64,000 bases of DNA from Nitrospirota bacterium (GTDB lineage Bacteria > Nitrospirota > UBA9217), in NCBI GenBank assembly GCA_963796285.1, contig CAWCKW010000012.1:1504001-1568000 (forward strand), in the 5' to 3' direction. The notes beneath the pieces are model-generated. The model saw nothing but the letters and a program-made list of their open reading frames with translations, searched no databases and was not told the DNA's origin. Shown here piece after piece: positions 19,685 to 59,906 of this stretch (the first letter of the stretch is position 1; each line of letters starts with the position of its first letter). Made by a program: the position numbers and the translations under genes.

Positions 19685-20128
19685 CGTTCTTAACTGCAGG
19701 AGGGCTTACACGGGACCTGTGACAGTGAGGTGACCAGATTGATCCAGATCAGGATAACAGGGAACCGGGGATTTGATCGGATAACCGGGAACTTGCTGAT
19801 TTTCCAGGAGATTGCACAAGCCGACCCTGGCGAAGGGCCTTGGCTCGCATCGTCTCCAGAATGTCTGTTCCCGGTGATTCCTTTCGGTGAATATATGTAT
19901 GCATGAAAATCCCCATGTTCTTGATATGTTACCGCGCTGGCAAAACAATCTGTTTGCGGAACTGAGAAAACATCCCTTAGTGAAAACCTATATGCTCTAT
20001 TGTCTCAGCGTACCGCAGTTGCTTGAACACTATCACAAGCGCCGGAGCCGTATTCCCGCTCCTTTCGAACTCGCGCTGATTACACGTTATTTATGGCAAT
20101 GATGCCGTTCTTGTCGAACCGAAAAAAA

Positions 20129-20301
20129 CCCCCGCTTTTGCCGTGTGGATAAACTTGATTCCTGGTATTAACCAGGTGGGCGCCATGTCAAAAAGTTTAG
20201 GCTTCCCAGTCCTATCTGGGCATGCACACCCTTTTCAGTGACAGCTCCCGTAATTTTTTTTTCACGAGGAACAAGTTACATCATCACGGGCAAAGCAGGG
20301 G
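20129..20301 (-). ncRNA. ssrS: 6S RNA
   Basis: Ends pair (CCCCUGCUUUGCCCGUG / CACGGCAAAAGCGGGGG); internal GGGAGC..GUGCAUGCCC..GGGAAGCC..GGCGCCCACCUG..CAGG pattern; canonical position downstream of zapA. Confidence 0.85.
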
Positions 20302-20319
20302 ACATTTTTTATTTATACT

Positions 20320-45180: not shown

Positions 45181-46197
45181 CTACTGTATTAAGCGCTCTG
45201 CGATCTGCACGGCGTTCAGCGCCGCGCCCTTGCGCAGGTTGTCGGACACGATCCACATATTGATGCCATTCGGGATCGACTCGTCTTCCCTGATCCTGCC
45301 CACGTAGACCTCGTCCTTGCCCGCCACATCGATCGCAAGCGGATAGAGGTTTCTCTTCGGATCATCGTACACGATAATGCCCGGTGCAGCCGAAAGGATG
45401 GCCCGTGCTTCGTTGGCCGATATGTTCTTCTCCGTCTCGATGTTCACGGACTCGGAGTGGCAGCGGAACACCGGTACGCGGACCGTTGTGGCGGTCACGC
45501 GGATGGAATCGTCTCCCATGATCTTCCTCGTCTCGTTCACCATCTTCATCTCTTCCTTGGTGTAGCCGTTGTCGAGGAAGGCATCGATATGCGGGAGACA
45601 ATTGAACGCGATCTGGTGCGGATAGACCTTCGTTTCAATATCCCTGAAGTTCAGGAGCGCGACGGTCTGTCCCGCCAGCTCATCTATGGCATCCTTGCCC
45701 GTTCCGGAAACAGACTGAAAGGTCGTGACCACGATGCGCTTGATCTTCACAGCGTCATGGATCGGTTTCAGCACCATGACCATGCCCGATGGTGGAGCAG
45801 TTCGGGTTGGCAATGATGCCCGCTGTGCTTCGCGATCGCATGGGCGTTCACCTCCGGCACCACAAGCGGCACCATCGGTTCCATGCGGAAGGCGCTCGAG
45901 TTGTCAATGACCACGGCGCCGGACTTCACCGCTGCCGGGGCGAACTCTATGCTGCGTTCGGCACCTGCCGAAAAGAGCGCGATGTCCACGTCCTTGAACG
46001 CGTCCTTGGTCAACTTCCGGACAACCAGCTTCTTGCCGTTAAACTCGACCCTCTCGCCCTCGGAACGCTCCGACGCAAGCGGGATCAGCTCGGACACCGG
46101 GAAATTCGCGCTCCTCGAGGATTTCGATCATTTCCCTGCCCACAGCGCCGGTGGCGCCGACAACGGCAACTACATATTTAGTTTTTTTCTTGAGCAT
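45181..46197 (-). CDS. asd: Aspartate-semialdehyde dehydrogenase, common bacterial type (frameshifted)
   Basis: VAVVGATGAVG, ALFSAG, IDNSSAFRM, VPEVN, IANPNCST, QSVSGTG, YTKEEMKM, DNLRKGAALNAVQIAE across frames. Confidence 0.92.
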
Positions 46198-46351: not shown

Positions 46352-47464
46352 CTATTTCTCCACCACGATCCGCAGCATGCGCCGAAGCGGTTCCGCCGCG
46401 CCCCACAGGAGCTGGTCGCCGCAGGTGAAGGCGTTCAGGAACGTCGGCCCCATGTTCATCTTGCGCAATCGTCCGATCGGCACGGTGAGCGTGCCGGTGA
46501 TCGCCGCCGGGGTCAGCTCGCGTATGGTTATCTCACGATTATTCGGGACGACCTTGACCCACTTGTTGTGCTTGGCGATCATGTCGGTGATCTCGGCAAG
46601 AGGCACGTCCCTGGTCATTTTTATCGTCAAGGCCTGGCTGTGGCAGCGCATGGCGCCGACGCGCACGCAGGTCCCGTCGATCGGGATCGGATTGCCTTCG
46701 CGGCCCAGGATCTTGTTCGTCTCGGCCTGGCCCTTCCACTCTTCCTTGCTCTGTCCGTTGTCGAGCTGCTTGTCGATCCAGGGGATGACAGAACCGGCAA
46801 GCGGCACACCGAAGAACTCTTTGGGATACGCATCGGAGCGGATGTGGTCGGACACCTTGCGGTCGATCTCGAGGATCGCGCCTGACGGGTCGTCCAGCAG
46901 GTCTTTACCGTGCCATGGATAGAACCCATCTGCTTCAGCAGCTCGCGCATGTTGTTCGCGCCCGCGCCCGAGGCCGCCTGGTAGGTCATGGCGCTCATCC
47001 ATTCCACCAGCCCGCGCTCGTACAGCCCGCCCAGGGCCATGAGCATGAGCGACACCGTGCAGTTTCCGCCGATGTAGTTCTTGATGCCCTTGGCCATGCC
47101 GTTCTTGATCACGTTCAGGTTGACCGGATCGAGGATGATGATGGCGTCTTTGTCCATGCGAAGGGCGGACGCAGCATCGATCCAGTAGCCCTTCCAGCCG
47201 GCAGCGCGCAGCTTGGGATAAACCTCGTTCGTGTAATCGCCACCCTGGCAGGAGACAATGGTCATCCATCGCCTTCAGCTCATCGATGTTCTTGGCATCC
47301 TTGAGCGCCGGGACGTCCTTGCCGATATTCGGCCCCTTGCCGCCAACGTTCGAGGTGGTGAAGAACACCGGGTCGATAAGATTGAAATCCTTTTCCTCGT
47401 TCATGCGGCCCATGAGCACCGAGCCCACCATGCCGCGCCAACCGATAAAGCCTACTCGCATCAT
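46352..47464 (-). CDS. asd: Aspartate-semialdehyde dehydrogenase, gamma/beta-proteobacterial type (frameshifted)
   Basis: [79 protein letters not shown]. Confidence 0.94.
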
Positions 47465-47546
47465 TGTTCTATTCCCCTCAGTTTTCATATTCGCAATCTT
47501 TAGCTCTAGACCACGCGTACTCCGCAATCCGAATCGTAGTCCGCAA

Positions 47547-48624
47547 TTACACCATCCCCGCCACCATGTCCCCCACTTCCGTCGTGGACATGCCCATCTT
47601 GCCCGCTGCCTGGCTCTTCATCTTCTTCATCACCGCGATCATTGCCGCCTCGATGGCCTGCGATGACTTCGTTTCACCGAGCGAATCGAGCATCATCATG
47701 GCCGCGCCGATGGCCGCCATGGGGTTGATCACCTTCTGGCCCGCGTACTTCGGTGCGCTGCCGCCCATGGGTTCGAACATGGAAACACCCTCGGGGTTGA
47801 TGTTCCCGCCCGAAGCCACGCCGAGCCCGCCCTGGATCATGGCGCCGAGGTCGGTGATGATGTCGCCGAACAGGTTCTCCGTGACAGCTACGTCGAACCA
47901 TTCGGGGTTCTTCACGAACCACATATTCGCGGCGTCGATGTGGTTGTAGTCCCGTTTAAGGTCAGGGTACTGTTTCGCGCCCATCTCCTCGAAGGCACGG
48001 TACCAGAGGTCTCCGCAATGGGTCAGCACATTCCGCTTGTGGATGAGCGTGATCGGCTTTGCGGCATACTTGGGATTCAGGGCATTGCGTTTTCTCTTCA
48101 GTTCAAAGGCATACTTCAGGCAGCGGTCCACCGAGCGCCGGTCGTACACCATGACCTGCGTGGCGATCTCCTCGGACGTACCCACGCGCGTTGCTCCGCC
48201 ATGTCCTGTATAGATGCCGCCCGTGTTCTCACGGATCACCACAAAATCGATATCCTCGGGACCCTTGTCCTTGAGCGGCGTGTCCACGTTCGGATAAAGC
48301 TTCACCGGCCTGAGATTGATGTACTGGTCAAGGGCAAAGCGTATCTTGAGCAGGATCCCCGCTTCCAGGATGCCGGGTTTTACATCCGGATGCCCTATAG
48401 CGCCCAGGAACATGGAATCGAACTTCTTGAATTCGGGGATCGCGCTGTCCGGAAGCGTCTCACCGGTCTTCAAGTACCGGGCAGCGCCGAAATCGAACTC
48501 GGTGAACTCGAGTCTTGAACCCGCCCTTTGCTGCAGCGGCATTGACGACTTTTACCGCTTCTTTAACGACCTCGGGTCCGGTCCCGTCACCGGGGATCAA
48601 TGCGATCTTGTAGGTCTTTGCCAT
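47547..48624 (-). CDS. leuB: 3-isopropylmalate dehydrogenase (frameshifted at 5' end)
   Basis: PGDG.GPEV, LRPVKL, RENT.G.Y, N.FGDIITD, FEP.GGSAP, NP.A.I; follows leuD. Confidence 0.9.
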
Positions 48625-49499: not shown

Positions 49500-49622
49500 T
49501 TAAACCCTCCTAAGACTTATCACTGATGTACACGGATATAGATCGAAGCTTACGATTCATCGTGTCTATCTCGTCCATTCGTGTCATTCGTGTCTCTGTT
49601 TGTGTCTCCGTGGTGAAAATTA

Positions 49623-50886
49623 TTACTTCAGTTCTTCCGGCCTTCCGATCCTGCCGAGCACAGCCGATGCGGCCGCGATCGCCGGGATTGGAGAGATAGA
49701 CCTCGCTCTTGGGGTGCCCCATCCTGCCGACAAAGTTCCGGTTCGTCGTGGCAATGGCGCGCTCACCGGCGGCAAGGATGCCCATATGGCCGCCCAGACA
49801 GGGGCCGCAGGTCGGCGTGCTGAAGGCCGCGCCGGCATCGATGAAGATGTCCACGAGGCCTTCTTTAATGCACTGTTTATAGATCGCCTGCGTGGCCGGG
49901 ATCACGATCATGCGGACATAGGGATGCACTTTGTGGCCCTTGATGACCCTGGCCGCCTCACGCATGTCCTCGATCCTGTCCGTTCGTACAGGAACCGACA
50001 ACGGACTGGTCGATATTGATGGCCGCAAGCTGGCTTACCGGCTTCACGTTCTCGGGAAGATGCGGGCAGGCGATCTGCGGCTCCATGCCGGTCAGATCGT
50101 ACTCGCGCACATCCACATAGTTCGCCTTCTTGTCGCTCTTGATAGAACTTATATTTCCGCTGGGCGCGCTTCGCAACATACTTCTCGGTGATCTCATCGG
50201 GCTCGATGATGCCGTTCTTGCCGCCGGCCTCGATGGCCATATTGCAGATCGTCAAACGACCGTACATCGGGAGTTTTTTGATCACCTCGCCGGTAAACTC
50301 CATGGCACGGTACAGGGCTCCGTCCACACCGATATCGCCGATGGTGCGGAGAATGATGTCCTTGCCGCCGACCCACTTGCCGAGCTTGCCCTTGTAGATG
50401 AACTTCATGCTCTCCGGCACCTTGAACCAGGCCTCACCCGTGATCATGGCAGCGGCGACATCGGTGCTGCCCACGCCGGTCGAGAACGCGCCCAGCCCGC
50501 CGTAGGTGCAGGTGTGGCTGTCAGCGCCGATCACCACGTCGCCGGGCACCACGATCCCCTGCTCCGGAAGGAGCGCATGCTCGATGCCCATCCTGCCGAC
50601 CTCGAAATACAGGGAGAGGTCATGCTCCCGCGAGAATTGGCGGAGCAGGTTGCACTGTTCAGCCGAGGCGATGTCCTTGTTCGGCGCAAAGTGGTCGGGA
50701 ATGAGCGCGATCCGCTCGGGATCGAACACCTTTTTCGCCCCCGTCGCGCGAAACTCCTTGATCGAGATCGGGCGCCGTGATATCGTTCGCGAGCACGAGA
50801 TCGAGCTTCGCGTTGATCAGTTCGCCGGGCTTCACTTCTTTTTTGCCGCAGTGCGCGGCCAGTATCTTTTCAGTAATGGTCATCAT
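49623..50886 (-). CDS. leuC: 3-isopropylmalate dehydratase large subunit (several frameshifts)
   Basis: [56 protein letters not shown]. Confidence 0.93.
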
Positions 50887-50920
50887 AGGTTTTTGACTAT
50901 ACAATATCCCTTATTCAGAT

Positions 50921-52451
<1,531 letters not shown>

Positions 52452-52508
52452 ACTGGTTTCCTCAATACTTTGTGGTCACAGGTCCCTCTGGAGCCGACCA
52501 AATAATGT

Positions 52509-52543
52509 AAAAAAAGAGATTAAGACCGCCTTCTTAATCTCTT
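52509..52543 (-). terminator. Intrinsic terminator between pssA and leuA
   Basis: AAGAGAUUAAGA-AGGCGG-UCUUAAUCUCUU perfect 12-bp stem running into a U tract. Confidence 0.85.
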
Positions 52544-52616
52544 GCTCCCTCACTGTCGTAATCGCTATTCCGATCAGAACGGATTAAGGAGAGGCGGTCT
52601 TCTGTCTCCTGAGCAG
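52509..52616 (-). promoter_or_regulatory. Candidate attenuator of leuA with antiterminator inside the pssA 3' end
   Basis: AAGACCGCCU-CUC-CUUAAUC (52601-52582) is complementary in 10+7 bp to the left arm, loop and part of the right arm of the terminator; Leu-Leu codons at 52616-52611. Confidence 0.6.
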
Positions 52617-53333
52617 TCCATACAGTGCCTCTGCCAGGCCGATCGCAACATAGGTTATTGAAACAAAAAACAGGACGAGCGCCGGATGATAGGCAACAAA
52701 CGCCAGAAATGCCGCGATAATGACCAGGATCCCGAAAGGACGGCGCTCCTTCAGATTGGCTTCCTTGATGCTATGATACGTGATGTTGCTCACCATGAGG
52801 CCGGCAAGCAGGAACGTCATCCCCAACACCCAGTAATCCTTGACCATCACATCGGCCAACCTCTCCAGTTTCCAGTTCTCAAGGTTCTCGATGACCTCTC
52901 CGTAGGCAAGTACCGTGGTGGCGATCACCAGAGCTGCTGCAGGCGTCGGCAGCCCGGTAAAATGTTTTTTCTCAGCGCCGCTCATCTGGACGTTGAACCT
53001 CGCGAGCCTGAGCGCCGCGCAGGCGACCAGGAAGAACGCACCAAGCCAGCCGACCTTGCCAAAGGCCGACAGCGTCCAGGTATAGACCAGGACACCCGGC
53101 GCGACACCAAAGGAGATCACGTCCGAGAGCGAATCTATCTCAATGCCGAAGCGCGTTGCCGTATGCGTTATCCGCGCGACCCAACCGTCCAAGACATCAA
53201 ACACCGACGCGATCATGATGGCCCACGCGGCCCGCTCGTAATCGCCGTTCAATGAGGCAATGATCGAATAGAACCCCGAGAACATGCTCGACAGCGTGAT
53301 CAGGTTCGGGAGTATGTATATCCCTTTTCTCAT
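52584..53333 (-). CDS. pssA: CDP-diacylglycerol-serine O-phosphatidyltransferase
   Basis: PNL.T, D.LDG.VAR, FG.E.DSL.D.ISFGVAP, ALRLARFN, F.GLP.P. Confidence 0.93.
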   Translation of the reverse strand: MRKGIYILPNLITLSSMFSGFYSIIASLNGDYERAAWAIMIASVFDVLDGWVARITHTATRFGIEIDSLSDVISFGVAPGVLVYTWTLSAFGKVGWLGAFFLVACAALRLARFNVQMSGAEKKHFTGLPTPAAALVIATTVLAYGEVIENLENWKLERLADVMVKDYWVLGMTFLLAGLMVSNITYHSIKEANLKERRPFGILVIIAAFLAFVAYHPALVLFFVSITYVAIGLAEALYGLLRRQKTASP

Positions 53334-53974
53334 TTCAACACCCCGATGACGTCCCGCGCTCCCTTGACGCGGTCGCCGACCTTTACCTTGAGGTCCGCGT
53401 CCTTGGGGAGGAAGATGTCCACCCGGGAACCGAACCGGATCAGGCCGTAACGTTCTCCGGTGCGTATGGCATCGCCCGGTTCGGCATAGCATACGATGCG
53501 CCGCGCGATCAGACCGGCGATCTGCTTCACCAGCACCTTGTGCTTCCCGTCCGAAATGACCATGGCGGTCTGCTCGTTGTCAAGCGAGGCCTTGTCCACG
53601 GACGCGACATGGAATTTGCCGGGATTGTATTTCACGGTCTCGACCGTGCCGCTGATCGGGGACCGGTTCACATGCACGTTGAACACGGACAGGAAGATAC
53701 TGATCTGCTTCACCTCCTGCTTCAGGTAAGTCGGTTCGAAGATGTCCTTCACCACGATCACCCTGCCGTCCGCCGGCGACACGACCGCGCCCGCGCCCTG
53801 GGGCACGGTGCGCTCCGGGTCACGGAAGAAGTACAGGACGAAGAGCGTAAGTGCGAGCGACACAACAGCGGTGTTCTTCCATCCGAGCGCGAACAAGAGA
53901 GCGGTGACGATCGCGAGCGGGATGATGAACGGCCAGCCCTCCGAAGCAACCGGTATTCCGTAGTTTTTCATCAT
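53330..53974 (-). CDS. psd: Phosphatidylserine decarboxylase proenzyme
   Basis: FFRDP.R, SPADG, IFLSVFNVHVNR.P, QIAGLIARRI, IRFGSRVD. Confidence 0.94.
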   Translation of the reverse strand: MMKNYGIPVASEGWPFIIPLAIVTALLFALGWKNTAVVSLALTLFVLYFFRDPERTVPQGAGAVVSPADGRVIVVKDIFEPTYLKQEVKQISIFLSVFNVHVNRSPISGTVETVKYNPGKFHVASVDKASLDNEQTAMVISDGKHKVLVKQIAGLIARRIVCYAEPGDAIRTGERYGLIRFGSRVDIFLPKDADLKVKVGDRVKGARDVIGVLK

Positions 53975-54028
53975 GCTGTTAAGGGTTTTCTCCTTACATC
54001 TGACTTCTTACTTCTGACCTCTGTCCCT

Positions 54029-55802
<1,774 letters not shown>

Positions 55803-55815
55803 TCCACATCCTGAA

Positions 55816-56289
55816 CTATTCACGGGTAATTGCCACCTTTCCTGTGCGTACGATCTCTTTGATCCCGATGGGCCTCAAGAGCTCGATGATCGCCGCGATC
55901 TTTTTTTCATCTCCCGTAATCTGGAAGGTATAGCTCTTCTGCGAAGAATCAACAACGCGCGCTCGGAAGATATCGGCGATCCGGAGCGCCTCTGCCCGGT
56001 GCTCGGCAGGAGCATTGACCTTGATGAGGCACATCTCCCTCTCTACGAACTCCTTTTCCGCAAGATCCGTGACCTTGATGACATCGATCAGCTTATTGAG
56101 CTGTTTGATGATCTGCTCGAGGATGCGTTCGTCTCCCGCGGTCACGATCGTCATCTGCGAGATCGTGGGATCGAGCGTGGGGCCGATCGAGATGGTCTCA
56201 ATATTGAACCCCCTGCCGCTGAAGAGTCCCGACACCCGCGACAGCACGCCGAATTTGTTTTCCACTAATACGGATATAATATGTTTCAT
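55816..56289 (-). CDS. ilvN: Acetolactate synthase small subunit
   Basis: [39 protein letters not shown]. Confidence 0.95.
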
Positions 56290-56300
56290 AGGCTATTTTC

Positions 56301-56362
56301 ACTCCGCATTCCGCTTGTACCCGCGCTCTCGCCAGAGCAGGGTGAATTCCGCACTCCGCATT
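56301..56362. repeat. Heptamer repeat (ACTCCGC/ATTCCGC) with nested insert
   Basis: ACTCCGC ATTCCGC [31-nt insert] ATTCCGC ACTCCGC ATT. Confidence 0.65.
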
Positions 56363-56365
56363 GGC

Positions 56366-58105
56366 CTACTTCACCGCTTTCAGCTTCTTCTCTTCCTTTT
56401 TGCCCTCTTCTCCGAATATCATCTCATTGATGGACGCACCTGCGGGAACCATGGGGAAGACCTTTTCGTACCGCGCCGTCACAAAGTCCATGAACACCGT
56501 CCGCTTGGATTTGAGCGCTTCCTTGAGCACCGGCACTACGTCCACGGGCTTCATGGCGCGCAGGCCGACAGCTCCATAGGCCTCAGCCACCTTTACGAAA
56601 TCGGGCGTGCTGCCGAGGTCCACCGAGGAGTACCGTTCCTGGTAGAACAATTCCTGCCACTGTCTCACCATGCCGAGGAACCGGTTGTTCAGGATCACCA
56701 CCTTGACAGGGATGCGGTTCTCCACTGACGTGGCAAGTTCCTGGATGTTCATCTGGATGCCGCCGTCGCCGGAGATACAGAACACATCCCGGTTGGGATT
56801 GGCCACCTTGGCGCCAAGGGCCGCCGGGAACCCGTACCCCATGGTGCCGAGTCCGCCGGAGGAGAGCCAGTTCCGGGGTCTGTCGAATTTGTAGTACTGC
56901 GCGGCCCACATCTGGTGCTGGCCCACATCGGTCACGATGATCGCATCTCCCTTCGTGACCTCGTAAAGCTTCTCGACCACGAATTGCGGCTTGATGACGT
57001 CATCGGCATATTCGTACGAGAGCGGCCTTTCTTCGCGCCAGGCGTCGATCTGCCTGAGCCAGCTCTTGCGGATCGCGTCCCATGGCTCTTTGATCTGGTG
57101 GAGTTCCTTGTTGAGGTCCACCATCACATGTTTCACATCGCCCACGATCGGGATATCCACACGCACGTTCTTCCTGATCGAGGTCGGATCAACGTCGATA
57201 TGGATGATCTTGGCATCAGGCGCAAATCCCTCAACTTTGCCCGTCACCCGGTCGTCAAAGCGCGCGCCGATGGCGACAATGAGGTCGGAATTATGGATCG
57301 CCATGTTGGCATAGTACGTGCCGTGCATGCCGAGCATGCCGAGTGAGAGCGGATGCGTGCCGGGGAACCCGCCGATACCCATGAGGGTATGGGTCACCGG
57401 GATCCTCGTGATCTCGGCGAATTCGAGCATTTCCGCTGCGGCATTCGAAAGAATAACACCTCCGCCGATATAGGCGACAGGTTTTTTCGCTTTTGCTATG
57501 GCTTCCGCTGCCTGCTTGATCTGCCATTTATTCCCGGCAACGGTCGGATTGTAGCTCCTGATCTCCACCTTGTCCGGATAATGGAACTCAGCCTTGTTCG
57601 TCACGACATCACGTGGAAGATCGATGAGCACCGGTCCGGGTCGGCCCGTGGAGGCGATATAGAACGCCTCTTTGATCGTCTGGGCGATGTCCTTTACGTC
57701 CTTGACCAGAAAGTTGTACTTGGTACAGGGTCGCGTGATGCCGACGATGTCCGCTTCCTGGAACGCATCATTGCCGATCAGCGCCGTGGGCACCTGTCCG
57801 GTGAAGACCACGATCGGGATGGAATCCATGTATGCCGTGGCGAGGCCCGTGACCACGTTCGTGGCCCCTGGGCCGGACGTCACCAGGGCGACGCCGACCT
57901 TACCTGTAGAGCGGGCATAACCGTCGGCCATGTGGACCCCGCCCTGCTCATGCCGCGGCAGAATAATGCGGACATCCTTCTGATCGTAGAGGACGTCGAA
58001 TATCTTGAGTACGACGCCGCCTGGATAGCAGAAAAGCGTGTCGACCTTCTCTTTCTTCAAGCATTCAAGAAATATTTCTGCGCCCGTAATCTCTTTGTTG
58101 GACAT
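56366..58105 (-). CDS. ilvB: Acetolactate synthase large subunit
   Basis: YPGG, RHEQ, TSGPGATN, GMLGMHG, RFDDRVTG, DVGQHQMWAAQ, GDG, LGMVRQWQ. Confidence 0.97.
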   Translation of the reverse strand: MSNKEITGAEIFLECLKKEKVDTLFCYPGGVVLKIFDVLYDQKDVRIILPRHEQGGVHMADGYARSTGKVGVALVTSGPGATNVVTGLATAYMDSIPIVVFTGQVPTALIGNDAFQEADIVGITRPCTKYNFLVKDVKDIAQTIKEAFYIASTGRPGPVLIDLPRDVVTNKAEFHYPDKVEIRSYNPTVAGNKWQIKQAAEAIAKAKKPVAYIGGGVILSNAAAEMLEFAEITRIPVTHTLMGIGGFPGTHPLSLGMLGMHGTYYANMAIHNSDLIVAIGARFDDRVTGKVEGFAPDAKIIHIDVDPTSIRKNVRVDIPIVGDVKHVMVDLNKELHQIKEPWDAIRKSWLRQIDAWREERPLSYEYADDVIKPQFVVEKLYEVTKGDAIIVTDVGQHQMWAAQYYKFDRPRNWLSSGGLGTMGYGFPAALGAKVANPNRDVFCISGDGGIQMNIQELATSVENRIPVKVVILNNRFLGMVRQWQELFYQERYSSVDLGSTPDFVKVAEAYGAVGLRAMKPVDVVPVLKEALKSKRTVFMDFVTARYEKVFPMVPAGASINEMIFGEEGKKEEKKLKAVK

Positions 58106-59844: not shown

Positions 59845-59906
59845 TGATGTTCTCCGTTAACGGAAATGATTGTAATTTTTAACATATATGGAGGGAAAGA
59901 GTCAAT

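Follow-up and report, generated by a model that had tools for sequence, protein, structure and literature searches.

Leader-peptide attenuators are known from the trp, leu, his and ilv operons of Proteobacteria, and attenuators of this type have reportedly been found in leu and ilv operons of Actinobacteria as well. At rph–pyrE, an operon from Escherichia coli, it is the ribosome reaching the hairpin itself that suppresses termination, the signal being the UTP-dependent speed of the polymerase. The full-length upstream gene serves there as the leader open reading frame (ORF), and the position of its stop codon relative to the intercistronic attenuator sets the expression of the downstream gene (PMC2784333, citing Bonekamp 1984 and Jensen 1993). 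In the trp mechanism, a ribosome at the stop codon favors termination (PMC7858274), a logic that is also proposed below. In addition, the ribosome represses a terminator in E. coli less and less as the distance between them grows (PMC4824070), and a leucine T-box precedes leuA in Geobacter (PMC2700814, PMC2494555). The locus analyzed here lies in a stretch of 64,000 nucleotides (nt), called the window, of an uncultured Nitrospirota bacterium (GenBank assembly GCA_963796285.1, contig CAWCKW010000012.1, positions 1,504,001 to 1,568,000 of the forward strand), at the junction between the lipid gene pssA and the leucine gene leuA. An element of about 80 nt begins exactly at the stop codon of pssA, and the chances seem to us about even that it is an intercistronic transcription attenuator reading the position of the ribosome that finishes pssA. 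In the literature searched (main texts, with few subscription journals), neither an attenuator between pssA and leuA nor the motif of this element is described for Nitrospirota. An earlier reading of the window from its letters alone (the ‘sequence-only reading’) had proposed a leucine attenuator with the C-terminus of PssA as leader peptide and was aware of no description of a full-length enzyme in such a role, an arrangement for which rph–pyrE provides a partial precedent (PMC2784333).

The features at the junction, in window coordinates, are the following.

52584..53333, minus strand: pssA, encoding CDP-diacylglycerol--serine O-phosphatidyltransferase, a membrane enzyme of 249 codons (NCBIfam TIGR00473, 134.6 bits, cutoff 107)
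52582..52601, minus strand: 5′ strand of the antiterminator, formed by the last five pssA codons, the stop codon UAA and 2 nt, in duplex with 52543-52522
52514..52543, minus strand: terminator stem–loop with 12 perfect base pairs (bp) and a 6-nt loop
52507..52513, minus strand: U tract of seven residues (U7), one U shorter in the contigs of sequencing runs X19 and X1 and in the relative L010
52506..52586, minus strand: full extent of the element according to covariance model R1 (91 bits, E = 1.4e-20; contig positions 1556506-1556586)
50921..52451, minus strand: leuA, encoding 2-isopropylmalate synthase, the candidate regulated gene (NCBIfam matches to both halves)

The spacer from pssA to leuA, which begins at 52451, measures 132 nt, and the terminator stem starts 40 nt after the pssA stop codon (29-44 nt across the copies described below). 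Folded alone, the terminator reaches -14.6 kcal/mol, a value equalled by 0/200 shuffles (z = -3.8), and it is also listed by a simple terminator scan. The base missing from the U6 variant lies at 52509, and its absence reflects either a homopolymer length error or natural variation. The end of pssA (AAG ACC GCC UCU CCU UAA, 52601-52584) pairs in 10+7 bp with the terminator left arm, its loop and the first 4 nt of its right arm (52543-52522), so that the two structures are mutually exclusive. This alternative helix is present in the minimum free energy (MFE) structure of a 161-nt stretch across the junction, the fold of which is not unusual as a whole (z = -0.95). The duplex between the stop region and the 5′ half of the terminator amounts to -24.6 kcal/mol, a value that is reached by none of 2000 dinucleotide shuffles of the 27-nt stop region and by only 2 of the 21,325 27-nt windows on the minus strand of the 64 kb, which are taken to be the site itself. 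When the whole element is folded, the antiterminator state (-44.3 kcal/mol) is favored over the enforced terminator state (-40.5 kcal/mol). The coordinates, the perfect 12-bp terminator and the competing 10+7-bp helix of the sequence-only reading were all confirmed. It had also named a separate leuA promoter past the terminator as an observation that would speak against it; a simple scan of the 57 nt between terminator and leuA found no sigma-70-like promoter, although an unusual one may lie there. Given this lack of a promoter-like site, leuA needs transcriptional read-through.

The distribution of the element was established on junctions gathered from 30 related genomes and 80 named GTDB records, which yielded 108 usable pssA–leuA loci. 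Among them, 56 unique junctions have a pssA of at least 70% identity (L008 and L038, with no stop codon on the contig, were left out); pssA and leuA are adjacent in 56/56 and about half carry the element directly after the stop codon. It consists of a pyrimidine-rich stretch after the stop, a hairpin, a ACGACGGUGAG block and the terminator. A total of 28 element sequences were assembled into alignments A1 and A2. The gene downstream is leuA in all 28 copies, including a paralogue type of about 60% identity that also passes the NCBIfam cutoffs for 2-isopropylmalate synthase. Searches with R1 found the element in 30 of 64 genomes, covering 8 of the 19 genera of one uncultured Nitrospirota family, once per genome, and did not find it in 16 genomes from 10 other families of the phylum. 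Rfam 15 has no relevant match, either in region 50000-58000 at E <= 1 or in the whole window at gathering score. The terminator is kept with strong covariation: 90.3% of cells are paired in the 28 sequences and 0/500 shuffles reach its score. Its outer stem (GAGAGAU/AUCUCUC) is constant across relatives while the inner stem and loop vary.

For the competing helix, the terminator left arm and loop were compared by duplex energy with every 16-nt window from position -240 to the terminator, i.e. about 260 windows, in 27 copies (L009 was left out, no clean terminator having been called in it). The 16-nt segment covering the stop codon is the global best partner in 16/27 copies; in 17/27 the stop region is unmatched by any segment outside it, and in 19/27 the share of outside segments that equal it does not exceed 1%. 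As a negative control, 0/6 non-homologous terminator-like hairpins at pssA–leuA junctions show a stop-region signal. The strand that competes with the right arm of the terminator is centered on the translated stop codon in every class, extending in most copies from about -14 to +9 around the stop, and the terminator classes keep the complementarity through different base pairs.

Pairing class: CUUA(A/G)UC with GAUUAAG, plus GCCGC with GCGG(C/U)
Pairing class: GUCUCUC with GAGAGAU
Pairing in L072: UGAUCU, which contains the UGA stop, with AGAUCA, and GUCUCUG with CGGAGAC
Pairing in L102: CUCGG with CCGAG
Pairing in L013: CCGCU with AGCGG
Pairing in L054 and L047: separate solutions

For 16 subclass representatives, the pairs that belong together have a mean of -13.8 kcal/mol, compared with -11.0 +/- 0.7 kcal/mol for permuted pairs (0/20000 permutations reach it). 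In fixed alignment columns, 67.5% of antiterminator cells are paired, versus 31-48% when the partners are slid by 1-3 columns. We conclude from these comparisons that the competing helix is a selected feature of the element, a conclusion for which the upkeep of complementarity and position counts more than covariation in the classical sense.

The two structures, their mutual exclusion, their conservation and their constant tie to the pssA stop and to leuA are well supported. A plausible attenuation mechanism can be drawn from this arrangement, in which the part played by the ribosome, the sign of the response and its signal are inferred. The strand at the stop codon is transcribed first; if no ribosome is present, it should therefore have paired into the antiterminator by the time the right arm of the terminator is made. 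If no ribosome covered the stop region when the left arm is made, the stop region would pair with that arm and transcription would continue into leuA. Conversely, a ribosome following closely, on or near the stop codon, would mask the strand, the 12-bp hairpin with its U tract would form and transcription would end after pssA. Ribosomes that are slowed or stalled toward the end of pssA, or on pssA in general, would thus raise the expression of the leu genes. The gap of 40 nt between stop and hairpin is too long for direct occlusion, which means that the ribosome can act only through the stop-region strand.

Several observations weigh against this proposal. RNAalifold, applied to the 28-sequence alignment, returns the terminator only as consensus structure, which is why the alternative helix was tested directly by duplex energy. 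Five of the 27 copies (L076, L020, L018, L037, L045) lack special pairing of the stop region, and three others (L051, L043, L048) are intermediate in the positional test. While the sequence-only reading looked to covariation of both helices in relatives, a strong signal was found for the terminator but only a modest one for the antiterminator, with 42/500 shuffles reaching its score and 21/500 its count of double changes. The tails of class B form stronger duplexes with the terminators of class A than with those of their own class; part of the signal thus reflects shared ancestry, and all 27 copies are related and may stem from one origin. Furthermore, the terminator state is the overall MFE in 20/27 copies, and the switch must therefore be kinetic. 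A general sensor of translation speed would have to work despite polarity of the Rho type. To these points are added the missing signal for specific leucine codons and a strongly conserved 40-nt middle segment that the ribosome model does not need, both considered below.

The segment between the stop codon and the terminator contains two further features.

52555..52580, minus strand: middle hairpin, +4 to +29 after the stop codon, present in the MFE structure
52548..52559, minus strand: most conserved, unpaired-looking block, resembling a Shine–Dalgarno sequence (ACGACAGUGAGG here, ACGACGGUGAG in most relatives of alignments A1 and A2)

These 40 nt are kept in primary sequence across genera in which the spacer downstream can no longer be aligned. 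They had been overlooked in the sequence-only reading, and its simple model does not explain them. The middle hairpin has 72% of its alignment cells paired, versus 27-54% with slid partners, and its covariation is no better than that of shuffles (198/500). In one subclass (L002-L005) most of the segment has been lost, while the terminator, the pairing at the stop and a GAC(A/C)(A/G)UGAGG block are retained. The hairpin together with the GACGGUGAG block may serve to pace the polymerase or as a binding site; the segment could act as a hairpin for pausing, timing or spacing, as a Shine–Dalgarno-like site that holds the ribosome, or as a place where a factor binds. Three other explanations of the segment were tried and rejected. 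A coding extension past the pssA stop (frame S-V-L-I-G-I-A-I-T-T-V) is broken in relatives by in-frame stops and by indels of 1 and 4 nt, which are not multiples of three, and the sequence after the stop is non-coding. A small leader ORF after the Shine–Dalgarno-like GGUGAG has, on inspection, neither a canonical start nor a conserved peptide, and a degenerate T-box core amounts to a partial letter match (GGUGAG..GCG) without helices or Rfam support.

Other lineages have arrived at different solutions at the same junction. In other Nitrospirota families, 4/6 candidate loci scanned between pssA and leuA reach the Rfam gathering score for a T-box (L024, L029, L030 and L082, with L093 and L101 below it). 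A GAA-CUC-G loop occurs in all flagged T-box loci at the presumed specifier position; we take it to be a leucine specifier, its placement following from T-box anatomy. L025 and further loci were also flagged as T-box leaders between pssA and leuA. The presence of T-boxes here in sister lineages marks the junction as a point of regulation. The T-box model (RF00230) has no match in 50000-58000 of the window (E <= 1), in the whole window (gathering score) or in the whole genome of the organism itself (96% complete). In some other lineages pssA and leuA overlap, and therefore no element is found there, while other members of the family have unrelated terminator-like hairpins at the junction. L019, which belongs to the family but lacks the R1 element, carries from +14 to +76 after the pssA stop a long hairpin of another kind that ends in a U-rich tail; there the left arm is repeated by the stop region (UAAGAUAUU), which could take its place in pairing with the right arm. 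This single case would be a different route to an antiterminator.

The specific signal advocated by the sequence-only reading was leucine, a shortage of Leu-tRNA stalling the ribosome at two tandem codons and thereby freeing the antiterminator.

52611..52616, minus strand: Leu-Leu codons CUG CUC at codons -10/-9 of pssA, proposed as control codons (read from the sequence)

The geometry holds, since the pair (52616-52611) ends 9 nt upstream of the antiterminator strand. Leucine occurs at -9/-10 or -10/-11 in most element-bearing tails, leuA is the gene concerned in all 28 copies, the 60%-identity type included, and the T-box loops of sister lineages are read as leucine specifiers. However, conservation of these codons as a signal did not hold up: leucine codons at -8 to -12 average 1.57 in the 28 tails with the element (counting L102, the tail of which is frameshifted upstream), versus 2.07 in 27 family tails without it. 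They belong to a conserved EALYKLL(K/R) motif of the protein, L076 has none of them, and L003, L022, L039, L046, L037, L045 and L040 have one each. Neither are CUC and CUG rare codons; with 43% and 34% of the 197 leucine codons in eight operon genes they are the commonest, and many other leucine codons lie within pssA. Moreover, in most relatives the paired strand does not start before -7 to -14, so that stalls at the intervening Arg, Lys, Gln and Pro codons would be equally effective. In the window genome, the pair at -10/-9 is the last stall position that leaves the whole strand free, and selection for this role is unsupported. A leucine-specific attenuator, which would be a special case of the ribosome-reading one, is accordingly judged quite improbable, and the element may instead report the speed of translation in general. 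A fuller version, to which we give similarly little credence, would have the T-box replaced by a minimal attenuator in which the C-terminus of PssA is the leucine-sensing ORF, Leu-Leu the control codons and the GACGGUGAG block a new pause or ribosome-holding signal that synchronizes polymerase and ribosome; a housekeeping lipid gene would then serve in addition as the leucine sensor of leuACDB.

As the middle segment is unexplained by the ribosome model, a riboswitch-like or a protein- or tRNA-binding riboregulator stays alive as an explanation, although we consider it unlikely. In such a device, the hairpin and GACGGUGAG would bind a ligand or factor that either strengthens or blocks the helix between stop region and left arm, and the overlap with the pssA stop would be a mere compaction. 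The preservation of 40 nt amid unalignable spacers favors it, as does the fact that the element takes the functional place of the T-box. Nevertheless, an aptamer of this length would be very short, Rfam gives no match even at E <= 1, the middle hairpin lacks covariation, L002-L005 dispense with most of the segment while keeping terminator and stop pairing, and a ribosome-independent switch would be expected to avoid an antiterminator strand centered on a translated stop codon in every class. Still less probable, in our view, is an ordinary leaky terminator within the operon or a 3′-end element, which would mark the end of the ilv–psd–pssA message or give rise to a small RNA derived from the 3′ untranslated region (3′-UTR), the complementarity serving mRNA stability or processing or being inherited by chance. 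A hairpin with a U tract is indeed the commonest feature after a gene, unrelated hairpins of this kind occupy the junction in other family members, and 3′-UTR small RNAs have a similar succession of a conserved single-stranded block and a terminator. However, leuA starts 57 nt past the U tract, with no promoter-like site in between, and a constitutive terminator would starve the leu genes; in addition, the pairing is enriched by position (16/27 versus 0/6 in controls) and the motif, strictly single-copy, is tied to leuA.

The minus-strand operon has the order ilvD-ilvB-ilvN-(ORF)-ilvC-psd-pssA, followed by the element and then by leuA-leuC-leuD-leuB. Its genes upstream of pssA are as follows.

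59844-58192, minus strand: ilvD
58105-56366, minus strand: ilvB
56289-55816, minus strand: ilvN
55823-55140, minus strand: ORF of 227 codons between ilvN and ilvC
55060-54029, minus strand: ilvC
53974-53330, minus strand: psd

The start of pssA, taken from sequence and translation, overlaps the stop of psd as ATGA. The gap of about 750 nt between ilvN and ilvC is filled by the 227-codon ORF, an odd insert for an ilv operon, which has no NCBIfam match and, in Pfam, only a sub-threshold one to Lipoprotein_16 (24.6 bits versus a cutoff of 25). Upstream of ilvD, promoter-like hexamers (TTGACT and, further on, TACAAT) are found at 59869-59905 on the minus strand, after a terminator-like hairpin 3′ of a small ORF (60245-59986); this region is likely the start of the operon, and neither a leader peptide nor a T-box was noticed in it. 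The window's assembly shows apparent indels. The leuA gene is in two ORFs (52451-51411 and 51757-50921) owing to one extra base near 51667, and the contigs of three runs have one base fewer at 51666-51668, for which reason the frameshift is probably an assembly indel or a strain variant and not a family-wide pseudogene. Likewise, leuC is in two ORFs (49908-50729 and 49510-50028), leuB (47547-48542) begins at model position 34, and two adjacent ORFs (45181-45813 and 46352-47527) both match the semialdehyde dehydrogenase C domain. The sole Rfam match in the window is a 6S RNA (RF00013, 103.5 bits) at 20125-20304 on the minus strand.

Further copies of the element were considered individually. 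Five additional weak R1 matches that were examined are generic terminators after unrelated genes, and two matches in genome G045 correspond to a single junction split over two contig ends. Genome G016 has a second strong copy, in which no more of pssA is left than its last ~18 codons, followed by the element and an entire leuA. Its two copies (L111, at G016:C91 2687-2820 on the minus strand, and L007, on G016:C252) differ in context: in one, an intact pssA and the element are followed by an insertion of about 190 nt with inverted-repeat ends and a leuA fragment, and in the other, the remnant of pssA is fused to unrelated upstream sequence, with an intact leuA downstream. They could result from a strain mixture, a rearrangement or a chimera, this metagenome-assembled genome being in 490 contigs. 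Palindromic, repeat-like insertions between terminator and leuA are also seen in L002, L003, L004, L005 and L007, where the spacers measure 294-366 nt; in L002 and L004 they are located at roughly +80 to +200 relative to the pssA stop. The stretch downstream of the terminator evidently tolerates insertions, and the element itself does not. A metagenome scan for GACGGTGAG-N4-7-GAGAGAT matched at least 120 stretches, and 0/80 loci among the matches listed match R1. Contigs of run X19, an RNA library, span the terminator and both its flanks; one crosses 52509, and one has a difference at 52473, 53 nt from the contig end. They give a weak hint of co-transcription across the terminator, with DNA carry-over possible, assembled contigs being unable to show transcript starts, ends or levels; run X20 has no cover over the element, which counts neither for nor against co-transcription.

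If the proposed mechanism is true, attenuation could do without a dedicated leader peptide, and the end of any translated gene of an operon could be recruited as a sensing ORF with an antiterminator logic like that of trp. This would add to the lone textbook case of rph–pyrE, and would do so in a phylum without a genetic model. The junction would also illustrate how regulators (T-box, attenuator or none) have been exchanged in evolution at a single fixed point of a branched-chain amino-acid operon, and the annotation of Nitrospirota genomes would gain a new conserved RNA motif that Rfam lacks. Searching for terminators the 5′ half of which is complementary to the preceding stop codon suggests itself as a strategy. 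The practical impact is limited, as the organisms are uncultured.

With the leader-peptide attenuators, the element shares an intrinsic terminator upstream of a biosynthetic gene and an exclusive antiterminator with its 5′ strand at the stop codon of a translated ORF. The distance of about 75 nt from the stop codon to the terminator end, i.e. to the U tract, likewise resembles that of classical attenuators. It differs from them in having neither a short dedicated leader ORF nor a run of cognate codons, the ORF being the 249-codon pssA, in having no 1:2 hairpin before the control region and in its location between cistrons instead of at the 5′ end of the operon. Like rph–pyrE, it uses a full-length upstream gene of the same operon as translated leader, but the pssA stop codon is 40 nt (29-44 nt across copies) away from the hairpin and thus not close enough for occlusion, a separate antiterminator is present and the sign predicted is the reverse, with termination favored by a ribosome at the stop. 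With the T-box upstream of leuA it has in common the pssA–leuA junction, the target gene and the choice between terminator and antiterminator, whereas its length is about 80 nt as against more than 200 nt and it has no Stem I or specifier loop. Finally, the plain terminators that respond to ribosome distance (PMC4824070) also combine a hairpin and a U tract past a stop codon with modulation by upstream translation; in the element described here, this modulation would be exerted by a conserved competing helix and not by steric occlusion.

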